A DNA stretch of 64,000 nucleotides from Gemmatimonadota bacterium (GTDB taxonomy: Bacteria; Gemmatimonadota; Gemmatimonadetes; Longimicrobiales; Gaopeijiaceae), in NCBI GenBank assembly GCA_029262115.1, contig JAJCZZ010000050.1, forward strand, positions 1 to 64,000, in the 5' to 3' direction. The translations under genes were made by a program, and so were the position numbers. Within the stretch, counting starts at the first letter, position 1, and each line of letters opens with the position of its first letter. Below, piece by piece: positions 1 to 30,919 of this stretch. Under the pieces are notes generated by a model. The model ran no database searches. It was not told the DNA's origin and saw only the letters and a program-made list of their open reading frames with translations.

Positions 1-102
1 CCGTTCCGCTGGACCTTTACTCGCAAGGACCTGATGGCCTTGCTCATCAAGATCGAGAGGGCTCCCGAGTCAACCGACCTCCCCTCCCCTCTGGCCGCCT
101 GA
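1..102 (+). CDS. 3' end (last 33 codons) of an unidentified gene entering the window; ends TGA 100-102
   Basis: Open frame from nt 1 (PFRWTFTRKDLMALLIKIERAPESTDLPSPLAA*). Product unknown. The last 22 codons lie inside inverted repeat copy A. Confidence 0.3.
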   Translation, partial: PFRWTFTRKDLMALLIKIERAPESTDLPSPLAA

Positions 103-137
103 CTCGATACGTGCCCGTACTTACGTCTCAGAGGACT
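37..137. repeat. Inverted repeat copy A (101 bp); partner at 30829-30919 on the opposite strand, about 99/101 identical
   Basis: Direct comparison: the reverse complement of 37-137 matches 30829-30919, with mismatches at position 88 (near the GGGGAGGGGAGG core) and at the edge (position 137). Confidence 0.85.
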
Positions 138-243
138 TAGCTTGCTTCTAGACCGACCATTGCCTCAGCCGATCCATCGAGCCTTGGCTCCTCGGTGTGC
201 CGAGGGTGTAGAATCCCGAGAACACGAGCTTGGAGGACATGAG

Positions 244-426
244 ATGGCAGAACCAAGAGCCAAAAAACGGGTCCTGGACGCGGTCCGCAGCCTTCCCGAA
301 GACGCGACAGTGGAGGACGCCATGGAGCGCCTCTACTTTCTCGCCAAGGTCGAAGAGGGGCTCCGCCAGGCTGAGGCCGGGGAGACAATGAGCAATGAGG
401 AAGCCCGGAAGCGCATCTTCGGGTGA
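244..426 (+). CDS. Type II antitoxin (small addiction-module antidote, about 60 aa)
   Basis: MAEPRAKKRVLDAVRSLPEDATVEDAMERLYFLAKVEEGL... Its stop overlaps the GTG start of the downstream RelE/ParE toxin (GTGA). A paralogous remnant lies at 3258. Confidence 0.6.
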   Translation: MAEPRAKKRVLDAVRSLPEDATVEDAMERLYFLAKVEEGLRQAEAGETMSNEEARKRIFG

Positions 427-722
427 CCCGGATACGATGGACGGATCAGGCGGCTGATGACCTCAAGGCTATCCGAGAGTTCATCGAGCGCGATTCTCCT
501 CGGTACGGTCGCCTCGTCGCTGAGCGACTCTTTGACGCAACCCAGCGACTTGAAGTGTTCCCTCTTTCAGGGCGGGTCGTCCCTGAACTCGGGCGCGACG
601 ACGTTCGCGAAATCATCCTCGGGGAGTACCGCATCGTCTATCGTCTCAAGGGTGAGACCGTGCTGCTTGTTACGGTCTTCCGGTCATCACGGCTCTTTCC
701 GACTGCTCTTGCGGGCCTCTGA
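423..722 (+). CDS. RelE/ParE-family toxin (plasmid stabilisation system protein)
   Basis: 99 aa. The motif RIVYRL..ETVLLVTVFR and its size fit ParE/RelE. The start overlaps the antitoxin stop. Confidence 0.75.
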   Translation: MTRIRWTDQAADDLKAIREFIERDSPRYGRLVAERLFDATQRLEVFPLSGRVVPELGRDDVREIILGEYRIVYRLKGETVLLVTVFRSSRLFPTALAGL

Positions 723-938
723 TCCTGCGGCGCGCTTCTCTGACAAGGATTTCGAACTGCGGAACGGACGGGTGGCTCGTCCGACCAACTTGGCCCCCGC
801 GCACCGGCTCCGCCTGGCCGTGCCGGTGGACCGGCCGTAAGGTGGGCGTGTGTGCTACGGGTGGCCTGAGCGGGCGGATCCGGCCCGGCCGTCCATTTCG
901 CTTTACACCACCCGGAGCGGACTCTTGGCCTGCTCGTT

Positions 939-1367
939 GTGCACCCCGTGTATGGCGGGAGCGAAAGAGGCTACACGAGTAAGCAAGCTGCTGCGTTCGA
1001 AGGTATGGACGCGGTCGCCAGTCGGGCGGTCGCCGAGGGTGTGGAGGTCCTGCGCGAGATGTACTTCTCGCAGCTTCCGGAGGCCATGGCGCAGCCGGCC
1101 TGGGCCATGGCTTCTACCTTCGACCCCGGCAGCGTGACGACGACAAGTGGGTTTATCGCCTCCGGGGTCCAGCCATTCAGGTCGACTCATGAGCTCCACA
1201 ACCTTGCGGTACCGGTTCTTCTCGTCCGTGGAGCCGACGCGATCCACCCCACCGAGATTTCGGACCTGTATGCCGAGTCAGTGCCTGACCTCACCGTAGT
1301 GCCCCCAGGCGGAACAGATACCACGCACGCCATTCGTGCCTTCATGGACGACGCCGTCGCTTACTAA
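939..1367 (+). pseudogene. C-terminal fragment of an alpha/beta-hydrolase fold protein
   Basis: Only the C-terminal part (..VPVLLVRGADAIHPTEISDLYAESVPDLTVVPPGG..HA) is present. There is no N-terminal nucleophile region and a stop lies upstream. Confidence 0.4.
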
Positions 1368-1384
1368 CAAGGGCATCGAATGCG

Positions 1385-2077
1385 ATGCGATCTGGAGGGC
1401 GGTCTAACCGGACGGGTCGGTCTCGGGACTACCGGCTCCGCCTAGCCGTGCCGGCCAACAAGCCGTGGAGTGGGCCGTTCGCCGTCGATGCCGCGTGGGA
1501 ATCGAGGAACGGTCGTGCGGAACTGGCCAATCTGGTTGAACTGCTGCGGACCGATCTCAATCGGAACCTCGATAGACTAGCTGTGGCGCTTGACGAGGCA
1601 ACGGTTTCCGCGGCCGGAATGAGTCAACTGTTGAGGGTAATGGACGCACGAGAGGTCGTCCCTGGACACCCGCTCTTGGCCCTGCTCGGGTCGCCGTTTT
1701 CAGGATCCTCATTTGAGCCGGTAGCCGCGGCGTATGATGCCGTCACAAACTCGGCGTCCTGGGCGCGGATCCCTTCGGACGTAAAGGTCGCTCTGGCTGC
1801 CCTCGTAGGTTCCGCCAGTCGCAGTGACCTCCCATCTGTCCGAACGCAGAGCTACCTTGGCGCGTCCAGCGTTGCGGCGGAGTACGGAGGGCTACGTGCC
1901 TTCATGGAGAGTGGGGCCCTGGGATGGATGGGGACAGATGCTGAGTTCCTCACCCCTGATCCTGATGGCCTGCTCCGAGATCCCTATTTCGAACACTGGG
2001 TGGTAACCGTACTGGTCACCGAGCGCCGGGCGATGGATACGTTTCGCACCTGGCCAGACCAACTCGAAGCGATCTGA
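1385..2077 (+). CDS. Hypothetical protein (230 aa), no recognisable family
   Basis: Long ORF in the accessory patch. Its N-terminal codons overlap a 24-bp direct repeat also found at about 800. Confidence 0.35.
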   Translation: MRSGGRSNRTGRSRDYRLRLAVPANKPWSGPFAVDAAWESRNGRAELANLVELLRTDLNRNLDRLAVALDEATVSAAGMSQLLRVMDAREVVPGHPLLALLGSPFSGSSFEPVAAAYDAVTNSASWARIPSDVKVALAALVGSASRSDLPSVRTQSYLGASSVAAEYGGLRAFMESGALGWMGTDAEFLTPDPDGLLRDPYFEHWVVTVLVTERRAMDTFRTWPDQLEAI

Positions 2078-2127
2078 ACTTCACTGCGTTCTGGTGCTGC
2101 GCTAACAAGATGTTGAGTCCGAGCCTA

Positions 2128-2484
2128 TCAGAGCTGGGAGAGCTCGACGAATCTTTGCCGGACGATGTCAAGTAGCCGAGGAATCCTGGCCGCGTCTGAG
2201 AGTGCACCGTCCAACGCATAGGTGGCATCGGCGTGCTCAAGGAATCGTCGGGCTCGTTCTGCCATCCAGTCTCGGACCGTGTCCGGACTTGAAGCCACGT
2301 CATCAACGACGTTTTCGCGGCCAGCGACTACCGCGATGATGTCCTCAAGATCGTGACTCCCGAGCAGATCGTCGCCACCTCGACCTTCAAAGGTCTCCCA
2401 TTTCGTCGCCAGGAATAGGGCCGGGGTAGGAATCCTAATCGTGATTTCGTCGTCCAGGTCGTAAGTCACGAACTCCCCCGGCAC
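2128..2484 (-). CDS. Small protein (118 aa) resembling the C-terminal region of AbiEii-type nucleotidyltransferase toxins; also has an R-x6-H motif
   Basis: LFLATKWETFEGRGGDDLLGSHDLEDIIAVV resembles the AbiEii C-terminal motif. The N-terminal nucleotidyltransferase domain is absent because of an in-frame upstream stop. GTG start. Family call is tentative. Confidence 0.4.
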   Translation of the reverse strand: MPGEFVTYDLDDEITIRIPTPALFLATKWETFEGRGGDDLLGSHDLEDIIAVVAGRENVVDDVASSPDTVRDWMAERARRFLEHADATYALDGALSDAARIPRLLDIVRQRFVELSQL

Positions 2485-2608
2485 CAGGGGAGGTGACGAG
2501 GAGTTCGGCTACCTGGCCCCCGACGAAAACGACTTCGTTCAGCAATGGTTTGAGGGCGTTCGCCGCTTCAAGGAGAAGATATCGGTTCGGCCCCCATGTC
2601 CCGCCGGC

Positions 2609-3127
2609 TCATAGCCATCGGCCGAGTTCATCTTCAAGCAGTGTCTTCGCGAGCTTGCGCTCGCGGGCCCGTCCCACTCGCAGGGCATCGACTAGCGTCA
2701 ATAGGCGGTAGAGCGGCGGATTCTTGACTACCATCGAAGGCGCGGAGGAGCAGAGCGGTACGAGGGCCATGCCCCGCGAGTGGCCTTCGGCGCTTGGCCA
2801 AACAACGCCATGGGATGCGCTCATGCGATCGGCGAGCACCGGCCCTGAGAAGGCCGTTGGCACGCCCTGGGTTTCTGGTCCGAGCTCGCCGGGAAAGACG
2901 TATGGCACTCCGCTCACCAAGAAGTCTAGGAGGGCCTGATGGTTCGCCTCTCTAAGGTGGGAGATGTAAAGCCTGGCGACCTCAAGTCGCTTCGTGGCGT
3001 TGTGTGCCTCACCGACGCTGAGACCCACGGAGGCCGCTAGACCCCGGAACGTGACGCCGGGCCTTTGTACTAGTTGTAGGAGGACGCAAACGTCATGAGG
3101 GCGTAGCGCAAGCGGTTTCTGGCTCAT
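2609..3127 (-). CDS. Winged-helix DNA-binding protein (172 aa), upstream partner of 2128-2484; candidate AbiEi-like antitoxin/regulator
   Basis: N-terminal wHTH-like segment (LLQLVQRPGVTFRGLAASVGLSVGEAHNATKRL). Same strand, 125 bp upstream of its partner. Confidence 0.5.
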   Translation of the reverse strand: MSQKPLALRPHDVCVLLQLVQRPGVTFRGLAASVGLSVGEAHNATKRLEVARLYISHLREANHQALLDFLVSGVPYVFPGELGPETQGVPTAFSGPVLADRMSASHGVVWPSAEGHSRGMALVPLCSSAPSMVVKNPPLYRLLTLVDALRVGRARERKLAKTLLEDELGRWL

Positions 3128-3257
3128 TTCGGTCCCTGACTCCGTTGTTCATGAACGGTGAACGTCGTTCTTTTCGTTGACATCTTAGTAGACATGAGCA
3201 ACAGTTGTTCATTACTTATGAACAGTCAAGTGGAACAGGACATGGTAGGAACGAGAG

Positions 3258-3440
3258 ATGTCGGAGCCGAAAGCCAAAGAGCGGGTTCTCGACGCGGTGC
3301 GCGGCCTTCCCGAAGACGCGACAGTCGAGGACGCCATGGGCCGCCTCTACTTCCTCGCCAAGGTCGAAGAGGGGCTCCGCGATTCTCCCCGGTGCGCGCG
3401 ACTCGTCGCTGAGCGACTCCGGCCTGACGGAGGTCTATGA
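3258..3440 (+). pseudogene. Degenerate paralog of the 244-722 TA pair; an internal deletion fuses the antitoxin N-terminus to a toxin fragment
   Basis: DNA at 3258-3380 aligns to antitoxin 244-365. After ...gaggggctccgc it jumps straight to toxin sequence gattctcc..cgactcgtcgctgagcgactc (toxin residues DSPRYGRLVAERL). Confidence 0.6.
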
Positions 3441-4174
3441 GGACGTGGCGAAGACATGGGTTTGCGGTAGTCCCGCTCGTCGCGGCGGGCCTGCTCATAC
3501 CCGCAAGCCTTCAGTCCCAAGAACAGTCGGAAGGCCGAGTGGTGGATTGTCAGATACCGGACAGTCCGCACCTGGTGGGCCAAGTGCGTGACCGGGCGAC
3601 CGGCTTTCCCCTGGAACAGGCTCTGGTGTATTCCCGGAACCTCGCGTGCGGTGCCCTGACCGACGCAGACGGACGGTTTGTGCTGCGACGATTCGGCTTC
3701 ACCGCCGTAGTTGTCGAAGCCATTGGCTACGAGCGGATTGAGTTTGAGCTCGAGGGCGCCAAGGACACCCTACGGGTCGACGTGGAAATGGAGTCGGCAG
3801 CCGGACCGCGCCACGAGGTCGTGGAGGACTTCACGCGGCTCGCCGGCAAGCCGCTGGCTCTTCCGAATCCGGTCGGCGTGGCGGGCTGCTACTGGATGGG
3901 CGGCGGACCGTGGGCCGAAGAGACTCTGGAGCTCCGCGCGGAAGGTCGGGTGACGCCAGAGTTCCAACCCGGGTACCGGGGGCACTGGGTGCTTGAGGAG
4001 TCCGGAGAGGCCATCCGGATCTCAAGGATGTTTACGCCGGATGCTGGCGAAGGCGCGCGGCTGGCGTTGGGGACGGACCCTGATTGGGGCCACCTCGAAC
4101 TGCGAATCAATAGCTACCGCATGTTCGACTCGACGGAAACGCTCACTTTCGCCGTGAGGGTGCCGTGCTCTTGA
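3437..4174 (+). CDS. Secreted protein with N-terminal carboxypeptidase-regulatory-like (CarboxypepD_reg) domain
   Basis: Signal peptide, then GQVRDRATGFPLEQALVYSRNLACGALTDADGRFVL. The ATG overlaps the remnant's stop (ATGA). Confidence 0.55.
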   Translation: MRTWRRHGFAVVPLVAAGLLIPASLQSQEQSEGRVVDCQIPDSPHLVGQVRDRATGFPLEQALVYSRNLACGALTDADGRFVLRRFGFTAVVVEAIGYERIEFELEGAKDTLRVDVEMESAAGPRHEVVEDFTRLAGKPLALPNPVGVAGCYWMGGGPWAEETLELRAEGRVTPEFQPGYRGHWVLEESGEAIRISRMFTPDAGEGARLALGTDPDWGHLELRINSYRMFDSTETLTFAVRVPCS

Positions 4175-4607
4175 ATAGGTAGAATCCCGAAAGATGTTCG
4201 GCGAGCCAGTCGGCGCTCTCCGCTGTAGAAGCAGTCCTTGAGCGCTGTAGCGTCGTTCCCAGAGGAGACACGCTCGGCCTGATCTGCTTGGGCTTCGTAT
4301 TCAAGAGATCGACCAGGGATGCTTCGGTCCCTTCGATCTGGCTCGAGAGCACGGCTTCCCGGCGGACGTACATGAATACGAACCGATTTGGGTTGGGGAG
4401 GATCTCGGCAGAGCCTACTTTGCCCAAGGACAGGGTCGCCCTCTCCAGAAGGTCACCCAGGGGGGCGAGGGCCAGATCATTCGGTGGGAACGGCTTGGGG
4501 ATGAAGGCGTCGAAGCCACCCGATTGGCGCCGAAGGACTCCAGCTCGCTGGGACAGGGACTTGGCCAAGAGCGATCCTTCGATGAAATAAGGAAGCTTAG
4601 AGCCCAC
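4143..4607 (-). pseudogene. Fic-family protein, N-terminal (Fic_N) fragment only
   Basis: FIPKPFPP..LALAPLGDLLERATLSLGKV..LPNPNRFVFMYVRREAVLSSQIEGTEASLVDLL is the Fic N-terminal domain. The catalytic HPFx[DE]GNGR region is absent and the ORF stops after 154 aa. Confidence 0.55.
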
Positions 4608-4615
4608 TCTCGGTC

Positions 4616-4726
4616 TTATAAGAATAAGTGCGCAGCTTTATTTCTTGGCGCCGCCGAATCGTCGGCCCAGGATTTGCGATTCAGGAGCACATCGAGCACG
4701 ACGTTGATGTCCAGGAAGAGACGCAC
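4616..4726 (-). pseudogene. 5' fragment of a VapC-like PIN-domain toxin (36 codons)
   Basis: GTG-RLFLDINVVLDVLLNRKSW... then a stop. It sits directly after the stop of an antitoxin-like remnant (TAAGTG). Confidence 0.35.
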
Positions 4727-4973
4727 TTACGAGTACTTCTCGTCCAGGTGGCGCCTGTAGTCCTTGATCGAGGCATCCTCTGGAAGGATGCCGCGGAGCC
4801 TCTGGACCCATGCGCGAGGTCGGGTTCGGAAGGCGCGTCGAGTCGACTCATATACTCGGTGACCAGCTTCGAAAGGCTGGTGTTGTGTTGAGTGCTCTAG
4901 CGGCGTGCTCGCTCGATCACGCGCTCATCGACGCTCAGTGTGAGCTTTCTCTTAGCCCGGGCTTAGAACTCAT
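4727..4973 (-). pseudogene. Decayed VapB-like antitoxin (frameshifts plus an in-frame TAG)
   Basis: Pieces in different frames: MSSKPGL.., KLTLSVDERVIERARR*STQHNTSLSKLVTEYMSRL, and C-terminal ..WVQRLRGILPEDASIKDYRRHLDEKYS*. Confidence 0.35.
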
Positions 4974-5092
4974 GCGCTGCCCCTCGTACGTGTTGGTATA
5001 CCAAAAGCGTACGCACTCAAAGGTGGCGACAAGTCTAAGCCTGCCCCCCCACCGCCTTGAAATCCCCCCCAAACGTCCGCGTAGGAAAGTGC

Positions 5093-6118
5093 ATGGTGCA
5101 CTTTCCCACACCTCCGGTTCGCGGCCTCGCTCTCCTTGCTGTCATCACGACCACCGCCTTCGGCTGCGACGACCCGGGCCCCACCGTCATCGACCACACG
5201 GAGCGGGACCCGTCCCCCGAGCTGAAGACCATCGACGGCTCGTGGCGACGCGGTCCGGACATCCCTCGAGGCCTGTTCCGCCCTGAGGTCCACTACCACG
5301 GCGGTATGATCTATCTGGTCGGGGGTGCCACGGTCTTCTACGGGAGCGACTCGGGCACCACCGACCACCTCTGGGTTCTGGACCCTGCCGGGGGCGATTG
5401 GCAGCGCGAGACCGACTATCCGGTGGACGGGATGCGCATTTCCCTCATGTCTCGAGGCGATACCCTCTACGGCGTCGGCGGGCAGCGCTTCCCGGGAGGC
5501 CGTTGGGACCGCCTCTTCCGCCTCGCGCCGGGATCCGACGAGTGGGAACGGATGCCGTTTGAGGACGGGCCTGTGGGGCGCCTCGACTGGGAGAGCGTCG
5601 GCGACCGCCACCTCGTGCTCTGGGAGGAGGGGGAGGGTCAGCTCTACGAGTTCCACCCGGAAGACCTGACGTGGACGGAGTTGGCCCCGATGACGCTCGC
5701 TCGTGCCGACATCGCGTGGGTTTCGGTCAACGGGATCCCCTATGCTGTGTTTGGAAAGGACCTGGCGGTTATCGTGACGCAGGGGACCTACATCGATCGG
5801 TACGACCCGGTCGCGAACACGTGGAACCGCGCGACCTCTGCCTATGCCAGCCGGACCGATCCCGGGGTCGCGGTCCTGAACGGTAGAATCCACGTGGTGG
5901 GCGGCCGGTCCAGCGACTCGCCCCGTACCACGGACCACTTCGCCTACGATCCGGAGCAAGACGAGTGGTTCCGCGCCCCCGATCTGCCAATGCCCCATGT
6001 CGGTTTGTTCGGGGTGGAGGTGGACGGCGAGCTCTGGTTCATGGGCGGCGGGTCGGATGGTGCACCCAACGGCCTCAGCCGAGAGGTGTGGGTGTTTACC
6101 CCGGCGGGGGTTCCGTAA
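5093..6118 (+). CDS. Kelch-repeat lipoprotein
   Basis: MVHFPTPPVRGLALLAVITTTAFGC lipobox; repeated ..GG..Y.VGG.. Kelch blades. The long antisense ORF 4970-5998 is rejected. Confidence 0.75.
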   Translation: MVHFPTPPVRGLALLAVITTTAFGCDDPGPTVIDHTERDPSPELKTIDGSWRRGPDIPRGLFRPEVHYHGGMIYLVGGATVFYGSDSGTTDHLWVLDPAGGDWQRETDYPVDGMRISLMSRGDTLYGVGGQRFPGGRWDRLFRLAPGSDEWERMPFEDGPVGRLDWESVGDRHLVLWEEGEGQLYEFHPEDLTWTELAPMTLARADIAWVSVNGIPYAVFGKDLAVIVTQGTYIDRYDPVANTWNRATSAYASRTDPGVAVLNGRIHVVGGRSSDSPRTTDHFAYDPEQDEWFRAPDLPMPHVGLFGVEVDGELWFMGGGSDGAPNGLSREVWVFTPAGVP

Positions 6119-6188
6119 GGAAACGCGCCAACATCGTGTCTGCCCTACTGTTGCCCTCTGTAGCGCTCGGCCCTACCTACACCCCACC

Positions 6189-6362
6189 TCAGCCTCCTAC
6201 CTTGCGCGCCTTGCGCGCCCCAAGCGCCATCGCGCTGAGAACGACCACAAAGCCCAGCAGCGTCGCACCGGGAGAGTCGTCGTAGCCGCCGAATACGGCA
6301 AAGGCTCCGCCGAGAGCCGCGAGTGCAATGGGGGCGATAGCTGTGAGCACGGCTTTCATCAT
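6189..6362 (-). CDS. Small hydrophobic protein (about 57 aa)
   Basis: MMKAVLTAIAPIALAALGGAFAVFGGYDDSPGATLLGFVVVLSAMALGARKARKVGG. GGAGAG sits 5 nt upstream of ATG. Below the ORF-track length cutoff. Confidence 0.3.
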   Translation of the reverse strand: MMKAVLTAIAPIALAALGGAFAVFGGYDDSPGATLLGFVVVLSAMALGARKARKVGG

Positions 6363-6563
6363 CTCTCCTAATGAGGTCGTTCACGCAGTGTACTCTGTGT
6401 TGCAAAGTACCGCAAGCGGCAGTTCCCAGTCACAGCGGTCCTACGTCGTCCGGCGGGTACCAAGCAAACGGATCTGCGGCGCCGCACTTGCAACCCTCCC
6501 CGTCTAGACTCCCCCCCACAACCGCGTTAGTCTGGCCTCTCAACCAGGTGCAAGGAGCGCGGT

Positions 6564-8360: not shown

Positions 8361-8365
8361 TCGCC

Positions 8366-10150: not shown

Positions 10151-10201
10151 GGGAGGGTAAGCTCGCTCACCCTCCTCTGATTCCCTGCGGACGGCTCGAC
10201 C

Positions 10202-12700: not shown

Positions 12701-12718
12701 GCGTGGGCGCCCGTACGC

Positions 12719-21285: not shown

Positions 21286-21298
21286 AGGGCGGTGCGTC

Positions 21299-21850: not shown

Positions 21851-22085
21851 CGGCGTCTCCTGGTGTCGTGGTTGGCCTCCCCGAGGGCGACGATTCTAAC
21901 CGACCGGGACGACCGAGAGCAAAGCCCGGGGCCCCGGCGCGGTGCCCTCGTCATCATCCAATACGGAGCGGAGGTCCACGCTCTTCTCCGGGGCTTTACC
22001 CTTCCCGGCGACGCGTCTACCTTCGTGAACCTTCAAGGTTTTCAGACTTTTCGGGGGCAGCGCCCCCTTCAAGGAGAGTGGTTTC

Positions 22086-23489
22086 GTGGCCGGTACCGAG
22101 CGCTTCGATCTGATCGTCGTCGGAAGTGGGCCCGGCGGCTATGTGGCCGCGATCCGCGCGGCCCAACTGGGCCTCAATGTCGCGTGCGTCGAAGCGGAAA
22201 AGCTCGGCGGCGTGTGCCTCAACATCGGCTGCATTCCCACCAAAGCCATGCTGACGAGCGCGGCCTTGGTGCGGGAGATGGCCGTTGCGGAGAAGCACGG
22301 GATCAACGCGAAGGAGGTCACGTTCAACCTCGGGCCGGCCCAGCAGCGCTCGCGGGGCGTCGCCGACCAGATGAACAAGGGCATCCAGCATCTGTTCAAG
22401 AAGAACAAGGTCACGCACGTCGAAGGCTTTGGTCGTTTGAAGGGAAAGGGCAAGGTGGAGGTCGAGGCGGACGGCAAGAAGACCGTCTACGAGGCCAAGA
22501 ACGTGATCATCGCCACCGGATCGCGTCCGAGGAATCTCCCCTCGCTGCAGATCGACGAGGAGCGCATCTGGTCGTCCACCGGCGCCCTGATGCAGGAGGA
22601 GGCTCCCGAGTCCCTGTTCATCGTCGGATCCGGGGCCATCGGAATGGAGTTCGCCGACGTGTATGACGCATACGGCACGAAGGTCACGATCGTCGAGGCG
22701 CTCGATCGAGTCCTCCCGCTCGAGGACGAGGAGATCTCCAAGTTCATGGAGCGGAACTTCAAGAAGCGGGGGATGGACGTCTTCACCTCCGCGCGCTTCG
22801 AAAAGGTCGAGATCAGCGAAGACAAGGCGACGGTCACCTTCAAGGACAAGGACGGGAACGCCCAGACGCTCGACGTGGACGCTGTTCTTTCCGCAGTCGG
22901 TCGCGTCCCGAATTCCGAGGACCTCGGCCTCGACAGCGCCGGCGTGAAAACGGACGATCACGGCTTCATCGTGGTCGACGATCATATGAAAACGAACGTC
23001 GATGGGGTGTATGCCATCGGAGACGTGGCAGGCCGCCAACTGCTCGCGCACAAGGCGTCCCATGAGGGGGTCGTTTGCGTGGAGCACATGACCGGGAACG
23101 GGCATGGGACCGTGGACTACTCCAACGTCCCGAACTGCACGTACTGCACGCCGGAGGTCGCCTCGGTCGGTCTCACCGAGGCGCAGGCCAAGGAAGCGGG
23201 ACACGACATCGAGGTGGGTAAGCTCCCCTGGGTGGCGGTCGGTCGCGCGGTCGCGTCCGGGCATGCGGACGGTTTCGTCAAGATCATCCGTGGCAAGAAG
23301 TACTCGGAGATCCTCGGGGCTCACATCGTCGGTCCCCACGCGACCGAACTGATCGCGGAGTTCGTCATCGGTCGGCATCTCGAGTCGACCGTCGAGGAGA
23401 TGGAGAAGGCCATCCACCCACACCCGACGCTGTCCGAGGGCGTATCCGAGGGCGCGTTGGCCGCGCTCGGCCGCCCGATCCACATCTGA
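22086..23489 (+). CDS. lpdA: Dihydrolipoyl dehydrogenase
   Basis: GSGPGGYVAAIRAAQLG..GGVCLNIGCIPTK redox-active disulfide; C-terminal HAHPTLSE. Confidence 0.92.
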   Translation: MAGTERFDLIVVGSGPGGYVAAIRAAQLGLNVACVEAEKLGGVCLNIGCIPTKAMLTSAALVREMAVAEKHGINAKEVTFNLGPAQQRSRGVADQMNKGIQHLFKKNKVTHVEGFGRLKGKGKVEVEADGKKTVYEAKNVIIATGSRPRNLPSLQIDEERIWSSTGALMQEEAPESLFIVGSGAIGMEFADVYDAYGTKVTIVEALDRVLPLEDEEISKFMERNFKKRGMDVFTSARFEKVEISEDKATVTFKDKDGNAQTLDVDAVLSAVGRVPNSEDLGLDSAGVKTDDHGFIVVDDHMKTNVDGVYAIGDVAGRQLLAHKASHEGVVCVEHMTGNGHGTVDYSNVPNCTYCTPEVASVGLTEAQAKEAGHDIEVGKLPWVAVGRAVASGHADGFVKIIRGKKYSEILGAHIVGPHATELIAEFVIGRHLESTVEEMEKAIHPHPTLSEGVSEGALAALGRPIHI

Positions 23490-23971
23490 TGGAGGTCGGG
23501 GACCCGGACGCACCCGCCTCGCGCGACTGGCCGGAGGAACGGGAGCGTGCGCTCCGTCTGTGGATCTCGCTGGCGCGCTGCTATTCGACATTCAGCCGAG
23601 CGGTGACGTGCAAGATCGGCGAGTACGGCCTCACCGCGCCTCAGTTCGGCGTGCTGGAAGCCCTCTATCACCTCGGGCCACTCTCCCTCGGTGATCTCGC
23701 GGACAAACTGCTCGTGACCGGAGGGAACGTGACCTACGTCATGGACCGCCTCGAAGACCAGGGGCTCGTCTACCGGCAGCGGTCTCCCGACGATCGGCGG
23801 GTCATACAAGCCCGACTCACCGAGAGGGGCAGGGGTGTAATCTCTGGGGTCTTCCCGGGGCATGGTGAGTACATCGAGGAGCTGTCGGGCCACCTCGACC
23901 CGGACGAGCAGGATACGCTTCGCCGACTGTTGAAGAAGCTGGGGATGGCGGTGAGGGAGGAGAATCTGTAA
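23489..23971 (+). CDS. MarR-family transcriptional regulator
   Basis: LTAPQFGVLEALYHLGPLSLGDLADKLLVTGGNVTYVMDRLE. ATGA overlap with the lpdA stop. Confidence 0.8.
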   Translation: MEVGDPDAPASRDWPEERERALRLWISLARCYSTFSRAVTCKIGEYGLTAPQFGVLEALYHLGPLSLGDLADKLLVTGGNVTYVMDRLEDQGLVYRQRSPDDRRVIQARLTERGRGVISGVFPGHGEYIEELSGHLDPDEQDTLRRLLKKLGMAVREENL

Positions 23972-23974
23972 CAG

Positions 23975-25178
23975 GTGAGTCGCTCTCGCTGGAGACTTTT
24001 TCTCGTTCTGGCCGTGTTGGTTCATGGCTGCGCCGAGCCCTCGCCCTCAGTCGAGCGACTCGTGGTCCGGGACAGCGCGGGCATCCGGATCGTGGAGAGT
24101 TCCGCTCCCCGGGACGCCGAGCCCTGGATCGTGCAGGCGGAGCCGACGGTCATGATCGCCGGAGACTTCGACGAGCCGGACCACTACCTGTTCAACGCCT
24201 TCCGCGGGCGGACGGCGAACTGGTCGTGGCCAACGCCGGTAGCAAGCAGCTGTTGTTCTTCGATCGGGACGGCCGCTTCCTGGAATCTGTCGGACGTCAG
24301 GGCGACGGGCCGGGCGAATTCCAGGCGATGTTCGGGTTCTTTCGATGCGGTGCCGACACCCTCGTGGTCGAAGAGGTGACCCGCATGAGCCTGGTGTCGG
24401 TGGGTGGGCGCCGAGTGGCCCGCTCGGTGCCGATCGTCGGCCATTTTTCGCAGGGCCGTCTGGGGCTGCAGGGGCTGGCGCCCGATTGCTCGCGCGCCCT
24501 GTTCGCCAAGACTCAATTCGTCTCCCCCGACCGCAACGCCGGCCTTCACACCGTGTCTGCGCACCTGTTCTGGGGGGACATGGAGACGGGAGCGCACGAC
24601 ACGATTGCGATGCTACCGGTCCTCGACGCCGTGCCCGGTGAACTCGTCGGGGGACGGCAGCCGATGATCGCCAGCATGGGCAGCCCGTTCGGCCGCAGGG
24701 CGATGTGGGCGCCGTACCAAGGAGGGGTCGTCGTCGGTCTCGCCCTCCGAAACGAGTACGAAGTGTTCGGCAACGACGGCGTGGAGGCGGTCGTCCGGTG
24801 GGACGCGGCACTCGAACCCTCGGTGACCCCGAGTGGGACGAGGCCCTCCGTGCCCAAGCCGAGTACTACCGAAGCGAGCCGGACGAACCGCGGATGATCC
24901 CGGTGGGCGGCTACTACCGCCCGGCTACCAAGCCGCCCTACTCGAAGATGGTCGTGGACGATCTCGATCGGGTGTGGCTGCAGAGGTACGGCGGCGACGA
25001 TGGGTTCGGCCCCACTCCGTCGACCGAGTGGTGGGTATTCGGATCCGATGGGGAGTGGCTGGCCGAAGCCGAGATGCCCGTTGGACTGGAAGTCGTGGAC
25101 ATCCAGGGCAACCGCGTGTTCGGACGGACGGTCGACGAGTTCGACGTGCCCAGCTTTTCCGTGCACACCATCAACTGA
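23975..25178 (+). pseudogene. Lipoprotein with NHL/beta-propeller-like repeats; needs two frameshifts (near 24205 and 24810)
   Basis: Three consecutive ORFs in frames 2, 1 and 3 read as one protein: LVHGCAEP.. / ..VANAGSKQLLFFDRDGRFLESVGRQGDGPGEF.. / ..EWDEALRAQAEYYRSEPDEPRMIPVGGYYRP.. Confidence 0.45.
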
Positions 25179-25225
25179 CGGCGCCCCGTTTCACCCGAGC
25201 GAACTTCACGCTCGAACCTCGCTGC

Positions 25226-26461
25226 CTACGCGGGCTGGCCCTCTCCCACGCCCAGATCCACCTCGATTCCGCGGATCTCCAGAACGCGCAGCAACGCCTC
25301 TCCGATCTTGTTGTTCGGCGTGGACGCCCCGGCCGTGAGCCCCAACTCGAAGGGCCCCTCCGGAATCCAGTCGGTTTCCAAGAGCTCCGCCGCGGTCGGG
25401 TCGATGACCGGCTTGTGCCGGATCGTGCCGGCGTCCAAATCGATGCACGACGCGTCTTCGACGTGGAAGGTGGTCGTGTGCTGCCGGCACAGGTGGGCGA
25501 GGTGGTTCGTGTTGGACGAATTGTACCCGCCGATGACGAGCATCACGTCGGGTGGCTCCTTCATCATGTCCGCCACCGCGTCCTGACGCTCCTGCGTGGC
25601 CGAGCAGATGGTGCCGAACGACCGGTAGTTCACCTGAGCGTCCTCCGCACCGTACCGCTCCGCCATCGCCTGGTGGACCTTCAGCCCGATGGCCATCGAC
25701 TCGTTCGCGAGCATGGTGGTCTGGTTCGCCACACCGACCTGGCGCAGGTCCCGGTCCGGATCGAAGCCGGTCGACGCCTTCTTCGCGAAGTGCGTGAGGA
25801 ACTCCGCGCGGCTCATGTGGCCGTCCCGCTGCGCGATGTAGTCGCACACGAGCCCCGCCTCAGCCATGTCGCGGACGATGATGTATTTTCCGTTCGGATG
25901 CTTGTTGACCTGAGACGCGGTCGCGCGCGACTCCTCGTGGGTGTACTTGCCGTGGATGATGGCTGTGAAGCCGTCCTTGGCGTACTTCTCGACCCGCTTC
26001 CACACGTGGAGCACCGATCCGCAGGTGGTGTCGACCAGGATGCAGCCGATGGCCTTGAGCGTGTCGAAGTCCTGCAGCGTCACGCCGAAGGCGGGCATCA
26101 GGACCACGTCGTCCGGAGAGACCACGGAGAAGTCGAAGGCCCCGTCCGGATCGGGATATATGAACTGGATGCCCATCTCCGTCATCCGTTGGTTCACGTG
26201 GGGATTGTGGATGATCTCCCCGACCAGGTAGATGGTCTTGTCCGGGAACTTGTGCACGGTTTCGTACGCGTAGTCGACGGCACGGTCGACGCCGTAGCAG
26301 AACCCGAACTCCTGCGCCAAACGAACCGTGACGTCCCCGAATGTGTCGCGGTACCCGCGGGACCGGATGCGCTCCACCAGGGCCGACTGGTACTCGGCGT
26401 CGATGAGGGGCCTCAACTCCTTCTTGAGACCGAACCCTTTTCGGAAGTAAGTCTGCTCCAT
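25226..26461 (-). CDS. ispH: 4-hydroxy-3-methylbut-2-enyl diphosphate reductase (long form)
   Basis: LytB motifs GFCYGVDRAV.., ..VDTTCGSV.., ..NSSNTNHL... Start at MEQTYF; the upstream 142 ORF codons are a GC-rich artefact. Confidence 0.9.
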   Translation of the reverse strand: MEQTYFRKGFGLKKELRPLIDAEYQSALVERIRSRGYRDTFGDVTVRLAQEFGFCYGVDRAVDYAYETVHKFPDKTIYLVGEIIHNPHVNQRMTEMGIQFIYPDPDGAFDFSVVSPDDVVLMPAFGVTLQDFDTLKAIGCILVDTTCGSVLHVWKRVEKYAKDGFTAIIHGKYTHEESRATASQVNKHPNGKYIIVRDMAEAGLVCDYIAQRDGHMSRAEFLTHFAKKASTGFDPDRDLRQVGVANQTTMLANESMAIGLKVHQAMAERYGAEDAQVNYRSFGTICSATQERQDAVADMMKEPPDVMLVIGGYNSSNTNHLAHLCRQHTTTFHVEDASCIDLDAGTIRHKPVIDPTAAELLETDWIPEGPFELGLTAGASTPNNKIGEALLRVLEIRGIEVDLGVGEGQPA

Positions 26462-26570
26462 GGTCCTCGGAATACCTGCGTGGATGAACGGGCCGACTGG
26501 TACCCGAGGCGCCATCGAGGGTTCAGGTGCCGGGCGGACCCCCCTCGCCCGCCAACGGGTAAAGCTCCTC

Positions 26571-27161
26571 ATGAACGTACTCGCCCGCCTGGCCCTCCTC
26601 TTCGTGATCGTTCCTGTCGTCGAGCTGATGCTGCTGATCCAGATGGGTCGGTGGGTCGGCCTCCTGCCGACGGTGCTCCTGGTGATCTTCACAGGCGTGA
26701 CCGGGGCGTGGCTCGCCCGGGCCGAAGGACTCCGGGTCCTCTTCCAGTTCCAGCAGGAGACGGCCGCTGGTCGGCTGCCGGCGCAGTCGCTCCAGGATGG
26801 TCTGGCGGTCCTCCTCGGTGGTGCGTTTCTCCTGACGCCGGGCATCCTGACCGATGTGGTCGGCTTCAGCCTTCTGTTTCCTCCCACCCGAAAGTGGCTT
26901 CAGCAAAGGATGCGGCGGTCACTCAAGGCCGGGATTGCGAGCGGGTCGGTCAACTGGGTCGTGATGAGTCCAGGGGGATGGCGGTCAGGCGGGTCGGGCT
27001 TCGGTGGCGAGGGCCTCCGCGAAGCGGGCCGCTCCGAGCCGGAGGCGGTCATCGACCCGGACAGGGCGGACGGCTCGGTCGAGGGAGATCCATCCGGTGG
27101 CGTCGAACTGGGGGGCCCGGGCACCGGCAACGACATGGACGGTGGGCGCTCCGGCCCGTAG
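26571..27161 (+). CDS. fxsA: FxsA-family cytoplasmic membrane protein with low-complexity C-terminal extension
   Basis: MNVLARLALLFVIVPVVELMLLIQMGRWVGL..; divergent from ispH. Confidence 0.7.
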   Translation: MNVLARLALLFVIVPVVELMLLIQMGRWVGLLPTVLLVIFTGVTGAWLARAEGLRVLFQFQQETAAGRLPAQSLQDGLAVLLGGAFLLTPGILTDVVGFSLLFPPTRKWLQQRMRRSLKAGIASGSVNWVVMSPGGWRSGGSGFGGEGLREAGRSEPEAVIDPDRADGSVEGDPSGGVELGGPGTGNDMDGGRSGP

Positions 27162-27171
27162 TGTACCCGGC

Positions 27172-28239
27172 ATGAGCCAAGACATCGCGTTTCTGGAGCA
27201 GTTGCTGGACGCCCCCGGGCCTTCCGGGTTCGAGGTCCGCCCCGCCCGCGTCTGGCGGAAGGAGGCCGAGACGTTCGCCTCGGATGTTCGTGTCGACGTT
27301 CATGGCAACTCGTACGCAACGGTGAATCCCGGTGGTGCACCCCGCGTGATGCTGGCGGGCCACATCGACGAGATCGGTCTCCAGGTCACGCACATCGACG
27401 ACGATGGTTTCCTTTACATCGATGAGATCGGGGGATGGGACCCTCAGGTGCTGGTCGGGCAGCGCGTCGACATCCTCGGAAGGGACGGGGACGTTCCCGG
27501 CGTCATCGGGAAGAAGGCCATCCACCTGATGTCTCCGGAGGACCGCACGAAGGCGTCCCGGACCAAAGACCTCTGGGTGGACGTCGGCGTGACGTCGAAC
27601 AAGGAGGCGGCAGAACTCGGCCTCCGCGTCGGCGACCCGATGGTTCTCCGTCAGAAGGCGCTCCGACTGGCCGGCGACCGGATCGCCAGCCGGGCCATCG
27701 ATGACCGAATCGGAGCGTACGTGGTGCTCGAAGCCGTCCGGCTCCTCGCGAACGACCCCTGTCAGGCCGCGGCCACGGCGGTCGCCACCTCCCAGGAGGA
27801 GATCGGCTACTCGGGCGGAGGCGCCCGTAGCAGCGCCTACTCCCTGGAGCCGGACGTGGCGCTGGTCGTCGACGTCACCTTCTCGACGGATGTCCCGGAC
27901 ATCGAAAAGAAGGAGCTGGGCGACCACAAGATCGGCGGCGGTCCGGTCCTGAGCCGGGGTTCCGCCGCGCACAACGGCGTGTTCGAGATGATGGCGGAGG
28001 TGGCCGAGGCCGAGGGCATTCCCTACTCGGTCCAAGCGTCGCCGAAGGCCACGCGCACCGACGCGGACGGGATCTTCCTGACGCGCGGAGGCGTCCCTAC
28101 CGGCCTGGTGAGCGTTCCCAACCGGTACATGCATTCACCCAACGAGGTCGTGAGCGTCCAGGATCTCCGGAACACGAGCTTGCTGCTTGCGGCGTTCATC
28201 CGTCGGCTGACGCCGGAGACGGACTTTACGCCGCGCTGA
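27172..28239 (+). CDS. M42-family aminopeptidase/endoglucanase-like peptidase
   Basis: MSQDIAFLEQLLDAPGPSGFE..MLAGHIDEIG.. (FrvX/YsdC-like). Confidence 0.85.
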   Translation: MSQDIAFLEQLLDAPGPSGFEVRPARVWRKEAETFASDVRVDVHGNSYATVNPGGAPRVMLAGHIDEIGLQVTHIDDDGFLYIDEIGGWDPQVLVGQRVDILGRDGDVPGVIGKKAIHLMSPEDRTKASRTKDLWVDVGVTSNKEAAELGLRVGDPMVLRQKALRLAGDRIASRAIDDRIGAYVVLEAVRLLANDPCQAAATAVATSQEEIGYSGGGARSSAYSLEPDVALVVDVTFSTDVPDIEKKELGDHKIGGGPVLSRGSAAHNGVFEMMAEVAEAEGIPYSVQASPKATRTDADGIFLTRGGVPTGLVSVPNRYMHSPNEVVSVQDLRNTSLLLAAFIRRLTPETDFTPR

Positions 28240-28267
28240 GCGGGCGGGCGGCGGAGCGCTTCGCGGG

Positions 28268-30670
28268 TCATCCGTCGCGGAGGGCTTCGACCGGCTGCGT
28301 CCTGGCGGCCCGAAGGGCAGGAAAAACGGCGGCTCCGACGCCCAGCGTCATGACCAGCACAGCCACCATCCCCAGGGCTCTCGGGTCCAGGGGGCCGACC
28401 TCGAAGAGATGTGTGGTGAGGGCCCGGGCTGAGAGGGCGCCCGCACCGATACCGAGCGCGAGCCCCACGCCGACCTGCAGCGCCGTACGACCGAGCACTT
28501 CTCCGACCACTTCCCCGCTCCGTGCCCCGAGCGCCATGCGCACGCCGATCTCTTTCCGACGCTGACTGGTCGAGTAATTGACGACGCCGTACGTGCCGAA
28601 AACGCCCAGAACGAGGGCGAGAAGCGTGACCATCGAGATCAGCGCGGTCTGGTATCGGTCCAAGGCCATGGATTCCCTCCACACGTCGGACAGTGGCCGT
28701 AGCAGGGTCACCGGCTGATCCCGATCGACCCGGAGGACCGCCGTCCGAATCGCTCGCTCGCTGGGGAGCGGTCCGTCCGACCGGACGACGATTTCCAGTG
28801 TCGGCCAGGCGAAGGTGACGTCGCCCGCATACTGGTACATCCCGAGTCGTGGCCTCTCTCGGAGCCCGTCGTGGTGGACATCCTGGACCAGCGCGACAAC
28901 CTCGAACCAGGCGGTCGGAGGCGTTCCGAAGCCGACGCGACGCCCGATCGGGTCTTCGTCTCCGAAGACCGCCCGCGCAAAGGTCTCGTTGACGGCCACG
29001 ACCGTCACGCTGTCCTGCGCGTCGAGTTCCGAGAAGCGACGGCCTCGGAGCACGCCGATGCCGAGGGCGTCGAAGTAGCCGGGCGTGACCGCGTCCCAGC
29101 CCGTTCGTGGTCGGGTGGCGATTGCCGGACCCGTCAACTCGAAGCCTTCCGCCACTGGCGCCGGGATCGTGATCCCGTCACTCGAGAGCGGGAGCGTACT
29201 TGCCCCTCCCACTGCCGTGACGCCTGGCAACGACTCGAGTTCTGCGATGATCGCGCGGAAGAGCGCCTGCACCTCCGGCGCGGTGGGATACCGGTCCGAC
29301 GGCACCGTGATCTGAACCGCCAGACCCTCGGAGAGGTCGAATCCCGGGTCGACCGCACGGGCGTTCCGAAGGCTTTCCGCGAGGAGGAGCGAGACCAGGA
29401 TCAGAGCCGTCACGACCGCGATCTCCGCGACGACGAGACCGGCACGAGGCAAAGAGGCCGTACGGGTGCCGCCCAGCCGTCCCCCCATCAGCGCCTCACC
29501 CCGATCGAGCGCCAGGAGGGTCGGCAGGGTGCCGACGATGAGGCTCACGAATGCGCCGATCATCAAGCCGAAGCCCAAGACCCTTTGGTCGAGGCGGGCG
29601 CCCGCGAGCCCGGGCACGTCGGAGGGACTTGCTGCGACGATACCCGGGAGGGTCATGGCCGCCAGGATCACCCCGGCGGTCAGTCCAACGACCGCGAGGA
29701 GGCCGGATTCCACCATTTGTTCGATGATGATCCGTTCACGGGTGGCCCCGAGCGCCGAACGAACGGCGATCTCCCCGGATCGAGAGGTCAGCCGGGCCAT
29801 GGCCAGGTGGACCAGATTCGCCGCGACCACGAGGAGGACCAGCCCCCCCGCGAGGAGCAGGGCGTGAAGCACCGCTCGACTGTCGCCGACGAACGTCCCG
29901 CCCAAGGACTCGATTCCTACGGACACGTCGGTGCGACGGGTCGGTGCCTCTTCCTCCAACCCGCTCGCCCACGAGTCCAGCTCGGAGAGTGCCGCAGTGG
30001 GGCTGACGTCCGGGGAGAGCCGCGCGACTACATGCTCACTGAACCAGCCCGTGAAGTTCCCTGATTCCGGGTCGAAGACACGCGGGATGAACACGTCCTG
30101 GCCCCCATCCAGATCGAAGCGGAAGTCGGCATCGAGGACACCGACGACGGTTCTCGGCTGGTTGCCGATGATCAGGACGCCGCCGATCACCGAAGGATCT
30201 CCCGCGAACCGCCGCACCCAGTAGTCATGGGCTAGAACGACCACGCCATCCGATCCGGGTCGGTCCTCGTCCCGCGTGAAGGTTCTACCCAGGGACGCGT
30301 CGCGGCCGATAACCTCGAAGAAGTCGGCCGAAACGGCCCGCCCTCGTAGGACCTCGGGCTCTCCGTCGCCCGTGAGGGTCAGGGACTGCGCCTCGCGATA
30401 CCATCCGATCGAAGCGAACGACGTCGTTCGTTCCTCCAGCAAGAGGACATCGACGGGTGCCATCCCACGTCCGCTCTCCCCCCCCATCTCCTGGGTGATC
30501 GAATAGAGCCGATCCGGGTCGGAAAAGGGGAGCGGTCTGAGCATGACCGCGTCGACTACGCTGAACACCGCTACGTTGGCGCCCAGCGCGAGGGCCATGG
30601 TGATGACAGCGACCGACGAGTATCGCCAGTCACGCCAGAGTGAACGGGCGCGGACTCGTATGATCTGCAT
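28268..30670 (-). CDS. ADOP-family ABC transporter permease (orphan; no PadR partner)
   Basis: MQIIRVRARSLWRDWRYSSVAVITMALALGANVAVFSVV; two FtsX domains. An alternative start 22 codons upstream exists (30736). Confidence 0.85.
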   Translation of the reverse strand: MQIIRVRARSLWRDWRYSSVAVITMALALGANVAVFSVVDAVMLRPLPFSDPDRLYSITQEMGGESGRGMAPVDVLLLEERTTSFASIGWYREAQSLTLTGDGEPEVLRGRAVSADFFEVIGRDASLGRTFTRDEDRPGSDGVVVLAHDYWVRRFAGDPSVIGGVLIIGNQPRTVVGVLDADFRFDLDGGQDVFIPRVFDPESGNFTGWFSEHVVARLSPDVSPTAALSELDSWASGLEEEAPTRRTDVSVGIESLGGTFVGDSRAVLHALLLAGGLVLLVVAANLVHLAMARLTSRSGEIAVRSALGATRERIIIEQMVESGLLAVVGLTAGVILAAMTLPGIVAASPSDVPGLAGARLDQRVLGFGLMIGAFVSLIVGTLPTLLALDRGEALMGGRLGGTRTASLPRAGLVVAEIAVVTALILVSLLLAESLRNARAVDPGFDLSEGLAVQITVPSDRYPTAPEVQALFRAIIAELESLPGVTAVGGASTLPLSSDGITIPAPVAEGFELTGPAIATRPRTGWDAVTPGYFDALGIGVLRGRRFSELDAQDSVTVVAVNETFARAVFGDEDPIGRRVGFGTPPTAWFEVVALVQDVHHDGLRERPRLGMYQYAGDVTFAWPTLEIVVRSDGPLPSERAIRTAVLRVDRDQPVTLLRPLSDVWRESMALDRYQTALISMVTLLALVLGVFGTYGVVNYSTSQRRKEIGVRMALGARSGEVVGEVLGRTALQVGVGLALGIGAGALSARALTTHLFEVGPLDPRALGMVAVLVMTLGVGAAVFPALRAARTQPVEALRDG

Positions 30671-30828
30671 GTCTCCCCCCGGGTTCGGTTCGTCCGACGT
30701 CCATCTCAGGGTGACCGGAGCGGTCGGCACTCTCAATGGATGCCGGCAGGTTTCGCGCTGAAACCGGGATGAAGGCGATGTGAAAAGTCTTCCCGCGGTG
30801 CACCGCTTCCCTACACTTAGTCCTCTGA

Positions 30829-30919
30829 GACGTAAGTACGGGCACGTATCGAGTCAGGCGGCCAGAGGCGAGGGGAGGTCGGTTGACTCGGGAGCCCTCT
30901 CGATCTTGATGAGCAAGGC
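30829..30919. repeat. Inverted repeat copy B (partner of 37-137), in a gene-poor gap
   Basis: See copy A. Includes a pseudo-copy of the last 22 codons of the gene that ends at 102. Confidence 0.85.

Follow-up and report, generated by a model that had tools for sequence, protein, structure and literature searches.

Two probable IS630-family insertions behind a long-range inverted repeat in a Gemmatimonadota genome

What should be made of a bacterial contig that holds two nearly identical sequences of about 100 nt, facing each other across more than 30 kb? The window examined here (the whole stretch of 64,000 nt, positions 1 to 64,000 of contig JAJCZZ010000050.1 in assembly GCA_029262115.1 of a Gemmatimonadota bacterium) raises this question. 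The original prediction read the arrangement as a chromosomal inversion mediated by recombination or an invertible segment, with a dispersed repeat family as the fallback. We put the probability at roughly 85% that the arms represent the right end of an IS630-family insertion sequence (IS), which would have inserted twice, independently and in opposite orientations, 30.7 kb apart. With the IS end seen twice and the 30.7 kb still in its ancestral orientation, the inverted-repeat pair is ordinary mobile-element debris.

A repeat search of the window returned an inverted pair of 104 nt, 98% complementary, with arms at 37-140 and 30816-30919 and a spacing of 30,675 nt; the runner-up inverted pairs measure only 31-42 nt, at 71-81%. 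With up to three mismatches allowed, a 20-mer of the repeat has exactly two occurrences in the window and none in 100 shuffles. One of the two differences between the arms is a synonymous TCC/TCG within the copied ORF. The other, T/A at 138/30818, we assign to a target-site duplication and not to the repeat. The IS-derived part comprises 100 nt with the single synonymous difference, and lies at 37-136 on the forward strand (arm A) and 30820-30919 on the reverse strand (arm B). The coordinates first proposed (37-137 and 30829-30919, about 99/101 identical) were essentially correct, save that arm B starts at 30816-30820 and not at 30829.

Judged by the ends of a related IS and of a Rhodococcus element, arm A consists of the 22 final codons of an ORF, its stop codon, and a 34-nt terminal untranslated IS end (...CAGAGGAC), the last base of which is 136. 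Sequence and translation thus bear out the early description of copy A as the last 22 codons plus 35 nt 3' of an ORF ending at 102, and the same holds for the placement of copy B inside a gene-free gap of ~800 bp (30737 to ~31554).

The ORF itself (1-102, forward strand) is open to the left edge of the window. Its visible 33 codons and stop were identified by translation, tail HMM, and tblastn as the 3' end of an IS630-family transposase gene. Transposases of this family carry N-terminal HTH domains and a DDE_3 (DD(E/D)) catalytic domain. Since a 33-aa peptide is too short for database-wide significance, we employed a targeted profile built from 82 distinct C-terminal tails of IS630 transposases (HTH + DDE_3). 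Please note that this test was chosen after the plasmid hits described below were already known. The 33 residues align with the profile from end to end at 22.8 bits, whereas the highest score among 5,000 shuffles was 12.5 bits. Of the 993 ORF tails in the window, this one alone features among the 15 top-scoring entries listed.

By tblastn against 7.3 Gb of plasmids, the sole matches were weak (E ~2) and confined to the very C-terminal ends of Rhodococcus genes, of which two are annotated as IS630 family transposase and one as transposase. Two metagenomic relatives (P0001 and P0084), searched by tblastn on the window, both found their best match at 1-99. General searches with the peptide returned no match in NCBIfam or Pfam at E up to 10, no protein with three 5-mers in common in a word-index protein search (peptide padded to 40 aa), and 0 hits at E <= 1e-3 in an exhaustive phmmer search of 1.84 billion representatives. 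The IS630 assignment, drawn from these 33 C-terminal residues and the one IS end within the window, is highly probable.

Codons 1-12 (PFRWTFTRKDLM) form the most conserved stretch of the tail motif and lie outside the repeat. Because the ORF at copy A runs on upstream of the repeat with this conserved IS630 motif, the repeat belongs to the transposase gene. This bears directly on the proposal that the arms are a short, non-autonomous, MITE-like dispersed repeat that supplies gene 3' ends. A MITE is a short non-coding unit with two terminal inverted repeats and a target-site duplication. Copy B, at just 100 nt and non-coding in its context, would suit that description, and so would the independent contigs discussed below, which stop within the repeat; one of them (L001) begins 4 nt later than expected from two copies alone, which hints at more copies. 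However, copy B has one end where a MITE needs two: a sequence search located no left IS end anywhere in the window, and the search for a further IS end or for other transposase remnants was negative both in the window and in the gap at 30920-31600. Neither the repeat nor any IS630 gene is present in 1.3 Mb of related Gemmatimonadota loci, and an exact 27-mer of the repeat end occurs 0 times in genome contigs and 0 times in metagenome contigs. We consider a MITE-like unit very unlikely. The fallback of a dispersed repeat nonetheless came nearer the truth, although there is no free-standing 100-bp family donating stop regions; the repeat appears to be the 3' end of a transposase gene together with the terminal 34 nt of an IS630-family IS.

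The point at which the similarity stops is informative. For a related IS, the ends could be set from 10 contigs with differing flanks as C-TNA-GTGGTCAG...CTGACCAC-TNA-G, and TTA or TAA duplications match at both ends in 5/10 of these contigs. The Rhodococcus element ends in ...CCAC-TTA-G, 29 nt past its stop. Copy A ends in ...GAGGAC-TTA-G, 34 nt past the stop, and copy B in ...GAGGAC-TAA-G. Homology between the arms therefore ceases at the same point as in the related IS elements (...C/TNA/G), and beyond TTA-G and TAA-G the flanks of the two copies are unrelated (TTA-GCTTGC on the parDE side of copy A, TAA-GTGTAGGG on the ADOP side of copy B). The flank of copy A, at 137-140 on the forward strand, corresponds by sequence comparison to a TNA target-site duplication plus the G of a C/TNA/G target; that of copy B, at 30816-30819 on the reverse strand, reads TAA-G in element orientation (CTTA on the forward strand), a triplet unlike that of copy A. 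A CT(N)AG-like target with a T(N)A flank is found at the right ends of both copies. By our own arithmetic, a TNAG flank is expected by chance at ~0.01 per site at 66% GC. Within the terminal 23 nt, the window is identical to two relatives at 11/23 and 13/23 positions, and these relatives are identical to each other at 14/23. A 2-bp TA duplication with ~30 nt from stop to terminus was considered as a family rule and discarded, as the relatives duplicate TNA and P0084 has ~590 nt between stop and terminus; a short 3' tail is therefore not universal in the subgroup.

These patterns suggest a simple history. A DDE transposase would cut and paste the element into C/TNA/G and duplicate the TNA, so that similarity between two copies should end at ...GAGGAC and continue as TTA-G in one and TAA-G in the other. 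The T/A difference between the arms would fall on the middle base of the duplicated triplet, a position free to vary, and would thus mark two separate insertions. Copy A would be the right end of a longer and perhaps intact element, with a transposase ORF that extends past the left edge of the window; the left end of this element would read C-TTA-GTCCTCTGAGACG (the inverted terminal repeat) and would lie ~1.2-2.3 kb to the left. Copy B breaks off at 30919/30920 and has nothing upstream of the last 22 codons, hence none of the conserved PFRWTFTRKDLM codons. It would be the leftover of a second insertion, of which a deletion spared only the terminal 100 bp, that is, the 22 final codons of the transposase, the stop, and the 34-nt terminal end. 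The full length of copy A, the matching duplications at the left ends beyond view, and the manner in which copy B was truncated are inferences.

Could the assembly itself have created the pair? On this account, two loci were mis-joined through an IS end, giving a false truncated copy, and mis-joins are indeed common at repeats of such size in short-read MAGs. Logan contigs from two sister runs, assembled at k=31, provide an independent view. One (L001) equals window 112-1337 at 100% identity and spans the outer junction of copy A, and the other (L093) equals 30890-32259, also at 100% identity, and spans the inner junction of copy B. As both contigs reproduce the window at these junctions, the repeat is not an artefact of the assembly of the window. 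L093, from another run and another assembler, carries the truncated inner junction together with the following 1.3 kb; independent confirmation stops short of the outer junction, where 30737-30819 meets the remnant. The genes on either side of the insert, M42 and GAF, are neighbours in the ancestral order, so the join falls where it is expected. We regard a mis-join as highly improbable. The branch points at k=31 at which the Logan contigs end fall within the repeat, the behaviour expected of multi-copy sequence. Contigs built at k=31 cannot span the repeat, and thus carry no read-level evidence on flipping.

Evidence on the orientation of the segment comes from related genomes. An inversion between the arms would part the genes for M42, ispH, and lpdA, which lie inside, from those for GAF, MBL, and GlcD, which lie outside. 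Sixty-seven related Gemmatimonadota loci contain GAF as well as ispH. We compared their gene order and strands with the window and found the two groups collinear across junction B in every one (67/67), with the complete GlcD-MBL-GAF...ispH-lpdA run collinear in 51. In a MAG among the closest genomes (L003), ispH is 85% identical. This comparison covers junction B, the left flank of junction A falling outside the window. The orientation seen in the window is thus the ancestral one, and the segment has undergone no fixed inversion, contrary to the original prediction. A GC-skew profile, inspected for a trace of inversion, was uninformative at this scale.

Homologous recombination between the arms, with the 30.7-kb segment inverted now or recently, or flipping in part of the population, is very unlikely, for all that 100 nt at 99% identity in inverted orientation is a fitting geometry. 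RecA-dependent exchange requires a minimum of roughly 25-30 bp, which the arms exceed, and IS-mediated inversions are frequent in bacteria. Against this, recombination rates are low at 100 bp of homology, and no gene from the left edge of the segment is found near GAF in any relative. We would give a very slim chance to a narrower form of the idea, in which the IS copy and the inverted 100-bp relic still recombine and both orientations exist in the natural population, with the assembly showing the majority, ancestral form. What would flip in that event, and with as slender a likelihood, is a block of ispH, lpdA, the M42 peptidase, the ADOP permease, and others.

An invertible segment in the strict sense would be a site-specific element of the shufflon, Hin/Gin, or phase-variation type, with a dedicated recombinase acting at the repeats. 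Some C-terminus-swapping systems do have inverted repeats that extend into the 3' end of a gene, and that is the arrangement here. However, the stop codon lies within the repeat, so inversion would leave the protein unaltered, and the segment is 30.7 kb of housekeeping genes in an order conserved among relatives. The edge of the repeat, moreover, coincides with an IS terminus, and a scan of the 30 main ORFs in the first 38.6 kb (244 to 38641) gave no match to a recombinase or invertase family. We consider such an element extremely improbable, and this part of the prediction did not hold.

Directly right of IS copy A is an antitoxin and ParE toxin pair (244-722, forward strand; ParE at 423-719, Pfam ParE_toxin 8.8e-20). 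The antitoxin ATG stands 107 nt from the IS end at 136, and gene calling on L001 gives this pair as well. Also at the left edge of the segment are a Fic_N-only fragment and a degraded second parDE, and housekeeping genes follow further in, including an lpdA-like gene (22029-23486) and ispH/LytB (25229-26899). Family scans and coordinates therefore support the earlier picture of toxin-antitoxin and defence debris at the left edge, with core genes inside.

At the other end, an ADOP-family duplicated permease gene (MacB_PCD + FtsX by Pfam; NCBIfam TIGR03434, 688 bits) occupies 28268-30736 on the reverse strand. Its orientation is that of copy B, and its start lies 84 nt past the outer end of the remnant. 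The gene belongs to an insert specific to the window, located between M42 and GAF, and the relatives have no gene of similar likeness between those two. Adjoining the remnant are ~520 nt of non-coding, lineage-specific DNA (30920-31440) with short G/A-rich repeats. This stretch gave no family matches, shows no GC3 signal of the coding type, and has nothing corresponding to it in the relatives. Rfam gave no match in the whole window. A consensus scan detected no outward promoter or terminator at either IS end, so the idea that the relic regulates the ADOP gene downstream of it is unsupported. In exact-protein look-ups, the ADOP permease (two start choices) and GAF with its longer start were not on record; GAF with the shorter start led to Logan contig L093.

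The conspicuous long-range inverted repeat is thus best read as a longer IS630-family copy plus the relic of a second insertion, and not as a programmed invertible segment. Beyond annotation, its importance is small. For similar cases, we recommend asking whether the similarity stops at a transposon terminus and is followed there by a target-site motif. The public collections that were searched contain no close relative, so the IS630 family would gain a new entry from an under-sampled phylum if a full-length copy were recovered. What lies between two otherwise adjacent conserved genes (the ADOP gene, the IS relic, and an orphan stretch of 520 nt) illustrates on a small scale how elements of this type mark the sites at which a lineage has gained genes.

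How does the element compare with known systems? The best tail match is to the IS630-family element of Rhodococcus sp. WAY2 plasmid pRWAY02 (WP_236603691) and its relatives P0001-P0120, with the shared pattern PF.W.FT..DL..LL...AA followed by the stop. Identity is 39-46% over 33-35 aligned residues, between Actinomycetota and Gemmatimonadota, and 11-13 of 23 terminal nucleotides are in common. The Rhodococcus element has the same ...AC-TTA-G junction and nearly the same stop-to-terminus distance (29 nt, compared with 34 nt in the window). Some of the P0001-P0120 relatives have in addition an antisense ORF of 110 aa and a 3' region of 590 nt.

IS630 of Shigella and E. coli, from the IS630/Tc1/mariner superfamily, resembles the window element in its C-terminal tail, the short end past the stop, and a palindromic CT..AG-type target with T..A flanks. 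IS630 itself duplicates TA within CTAG (PMC2577343 Table 1), whereas the window element, of which 33 residues and one end are visible, and its relatives would duplicate a 3-bp TNA in CTNAG. In Deinococcus radiopugnans, the IS630-family elements ISDrpg7 and ISDrpg8 are reported to have 3-nt direct repeats of TGA, TAA, or TCA (PMC10017437), T-N-A repeats of the same kind as the putative TTA and TAA in the window. Going by their description, they are set apart by the terminal repeat TACGGACTCCGATTAA, by much shorter transposases of 181-187 aa, and by belonging to another phylum.

With regard to IS-mediated inversions, a longer IS plus an inverted relic is a classic substrate, but here the flanking gene order is ancestral, with no fixed inversion. 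The closest parallel to copy B is provided by solo IS ends and fragments; copy B would be a truncated single-end relic of that kind.

The repeat search places the inverted arms at 37-140 and 30816-30919, where 104 nt are 98% complementary across a separation of 30,675 nt; the runner-up pairs in the window reach 31-42 nt at 71-81%. A 20-mer taken from the repeat, searched with up to 3 mismatches, has exactly two matches in the window and none in 100 shuffles. Copy A takes in the final 22 codons of an ORF that is open at the left edge of the window, its stop codon (100-102), and sequence downstream. The gap that houses copy B is bordered by a minus-strand ADOP-family permease gene (28268-30736) on one side and a GAF-domain gene (from ~31555) on the other. 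The repeat and both of its settings are thus as originally described. We consider it about 85% probable, reading from a transposase C-terminal tail together with one terminus, that the arms are two copies of the right-hand end of an IS630-family insertion sequence (IS).

The tail is the peptide of the left-edge ORF, PFRWTFTRKDLMALLIKIERAPESTDLPSPLAA, which is very short and gave no matches in general database searches. Using tblastn against 7.3 Gb of plasmids, we obtained only three matches, all weak (E about 2) and each at the very C-terminal end of a Rhodococcus gene; two of these genes are annotated as IS630 family transposase and one as transposase. The 120 relatives collected for the Rhodococcus protein all carry HTH and DDE_3 domains, and their tails share the signature PF.WKFT..DL..LL.RLD, a variable stretch, and AA before the stop. 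A profile of 82 distinct tails, picked after the weak plasmid matches and judged against shuffles and the window's own ORF tails rather than the whole database, gave a 22.8-bit alignment with the window peptide over its full length; among 5,000 shuffled peptides the top score was 12.5 bits, and none of the other window ORF tails (993 scored) is among the best 15 matches listed. In the reverse tblastn, the transposases find their best window match at 1-99, through their final 33-35 residues. The motif core PFRWTFTRKDL comes from bases 1-33, which the repeat does not include; copy A therefore belongs to a transposase gene that extends beyond the repeat, and the truncated copy is B. The collections searched hold no close relative of the window IS.

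The outer edge of the arms can be read against a related element, whose ends were set from ten contigs carrying an identical transposase (P0084) in differing flanks. It starts C-TNA-GTGGTCAG... and ends ...CTGACCAC-TNA-G, where TNA is a target-site triplet whose middle base varies between sites (TTA or TAA) and which is directly duplicated in five of the ten contigs. In the Rhodococcus element the end is ...GGAACCAC-TTA-G, 29 nt past the stop codon; copy A ends ...CAGAGGAC-TTA-G, 34 nt past the stop, and copy B, in element orientation, ...CAGAGGAC-TAA-G. On this pattern, the T/A mismatch at 138/30818 would fall on the variable base of the triplet, and the 104-nt match would end in four positions of target-site consensus, not element. 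The IS-derived part is then 100 nt (37-136/30820-30919) with a single difference, TCC/TCG, which is synonymous in the transposase frame. With the base composition found here, simple arithmetic puts the chance of a TNAG flank at ~0.01 per site. Since the triplets differ and the flanks are unrelated past the G, the two copies indicate separate insertions of the same IS, not duplication of a chromosomal segment. Over the terminal 23 nt, the window IS agrees with these two relatives at 11/23 and 13/23, a likeness close to that between the relatives themselves (14/23).

The related element (the ten contigs and the Rhodococcus pRWAY02 locus) is about 2.2 kb long and targets C-TNA-G, with TTA or TAA duplicated. 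Upstream of the transposase and antisense to it lies a conserved ORF of 110 aa, which Rhodococcus also has. The P0084 element continues about 590 nt past the stop, and a 141-aa ORF is called there in three of the ten loci.

At its inner boundary (30919/30920), copy B abuts unrelated DNA, and neither the gap nor the rest of the window holds a second IS end or further transposase-like sequence; copy B is best read as a solo relic of an IS end. A MITE-like family is very unlikely, as copy A is continuous with a longer transposase gene and the second IS end is absent from the window. The fallback in the original prediction, a dispersed repeat, was right in spirit, although what is repeated appears to be an IS end plus its relic.

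An assembly artefact is a highly improbable source of the arrangement. The truncated junction of copy B is reproduced by a Logan contig (run SRR15505512) that matches window 30890-32259 at 100% identity, and is therefore not an assembly error. The contig starts exactly 30 nt ahead of the first unique base; a k=31 assembly graph branches at a repeat at just this distance. A second contig (SRR15505513) equals window 112-1337 and also starts within the repeat. Its start at 112, rather than the 108 expected with copies A and B only, weakly suggests, by k=31 graph logic, a third IS-end copy in that sample with a flank also beginning TTA-GC.

For synteny the anchor was ispH, which is single-copy and lies 4 kb within the segment; we mapped the window proteins onto 80 Gemmatimonadota loci with ispH at 71-85% identity. 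GAF (outside) and ispH (inside) keep the window's order and strands in 67/67 loci holding both. The complete GlcD-MBL-GAF...ispH-lpdA run is present in 51, several of which run on as in the window (LemA, DUF2207, first ADOP permease, carbonic anhydrase, DinB), and no relative examined has a left-edge segment gene near GAF. Across junction B, the boundary at copy B, the window thus keeps the ancestral arrangement, and the arms have given rise to no fixed inversion. The chromosomal inversion originally proposed is not supported, and the comparison with relatives that it called for finds no break at copy B. Ongoing or recent inversion is improbable: arms of 100 bp at 99% identity exceed the minimal length for homologous exchange and could support rare RecA-dependent inversion, but the window keeps the gene order seen in every informative relative and nothing suggests an appreciable rate. 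GC skew of the window was uninformative on inversion. A site-specific invertible element is scarcely credible, given no recombinase or invertase family match among the 30 main ORFs scanned.

One collected locus, PBUX01000064.1, labelled 'Methanobacteriota archaeon isolate RS442', has a Gemmatimonadota ispH neighbourhood (ispH 74% identity) in the gene order of a Gemmatimonadales UBA2960 locus, and was probably mis-binned into a public MAG.

M42 and GAF are neighbours in relatives, with a median spacing of 214 nt (57 loci), but lie 3,330 nt apart in the window. The DNA inserted between them (28240-31440) comprises a second ADOP permease gene (688 bits to TIGR03434), the IS relic, and an orphan non-coding stretch of ~520 nt, and looks to be a lineage-specific gene gain that carries an IS scar. 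Beyond the relic, the gap (30920 to ~31440) is without coding signal, family match, or counterpart in relatives; only ~115 nt directly upstream of GAF are conserved. In the orphan DNA, GTCGCAG(G)AGGGGAAGGGAAGGCC occurs twice in direct orientation (31163-31198 and 31234-31269, 71 nt apart) and has an inverted partner (CCCTCCCTTCCC) at 31315-31335, about 60-130 nt downstream, with no Rfam match for these repeats.

The segment contents also agree with the original prediction, with toxin-antitoxin and Fic debris at the left edge and housekeeping genes deeper in (two M14 peptidases, carbonic anhydrase, ADOP permease, Band7, DUF2207, LemA, lpdA-like, ispH, M42 peptidase). An antitoxin and ParE toxin occupy 244-722. 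In a degraded second module at 3255-3440, the 5' part of the antitoxin (126 nt, 88% identical to 241-366) runs straight into a ParE fragment of 42 nt (equivalent to 489-530), implying an internal deletion of ~120 nt and then truncation. The ORF at 4146-4607 (minus strand) has an N-terminal Fic_N domain (6.5e-12) without the Fic catalytic domain, and appears to be a truncated Fic/Doc-type gene; it shares its low-GC3 debris patch with the parDE copies. A 45-nt direct repeat (803-847/1431-1475, 80% identity; ACCGGCTCCGCCT.GCCGTGCCGG...) lies in this patch, which adjoins the IS.

We propose at least two insertions in this region by an IS630-family element that moves into C-TNA-G sites by DDE-transposase cut-and-paste. 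Copy A, beside the debris at the left window edge, would exceed 136 bp and may be intact, whereas copy B, just upstream of the lineage-specific ADOP permease gene, would later have lost all but its terminal 100 bp; their inverted orientation would be incidental. The repeat pair would then be an ordinary insertion sequence and its relic, of a kind already known. The target behaviour of the window IS is likewise known, since 3-nt T-N-A duplications are on record for bacterial IS630-family members (PMC10017437). The IS630 prototype differs in duplicating TA within CTAG (PMC2577343, Table 1), whereas the window IS and its relatives use TNA.
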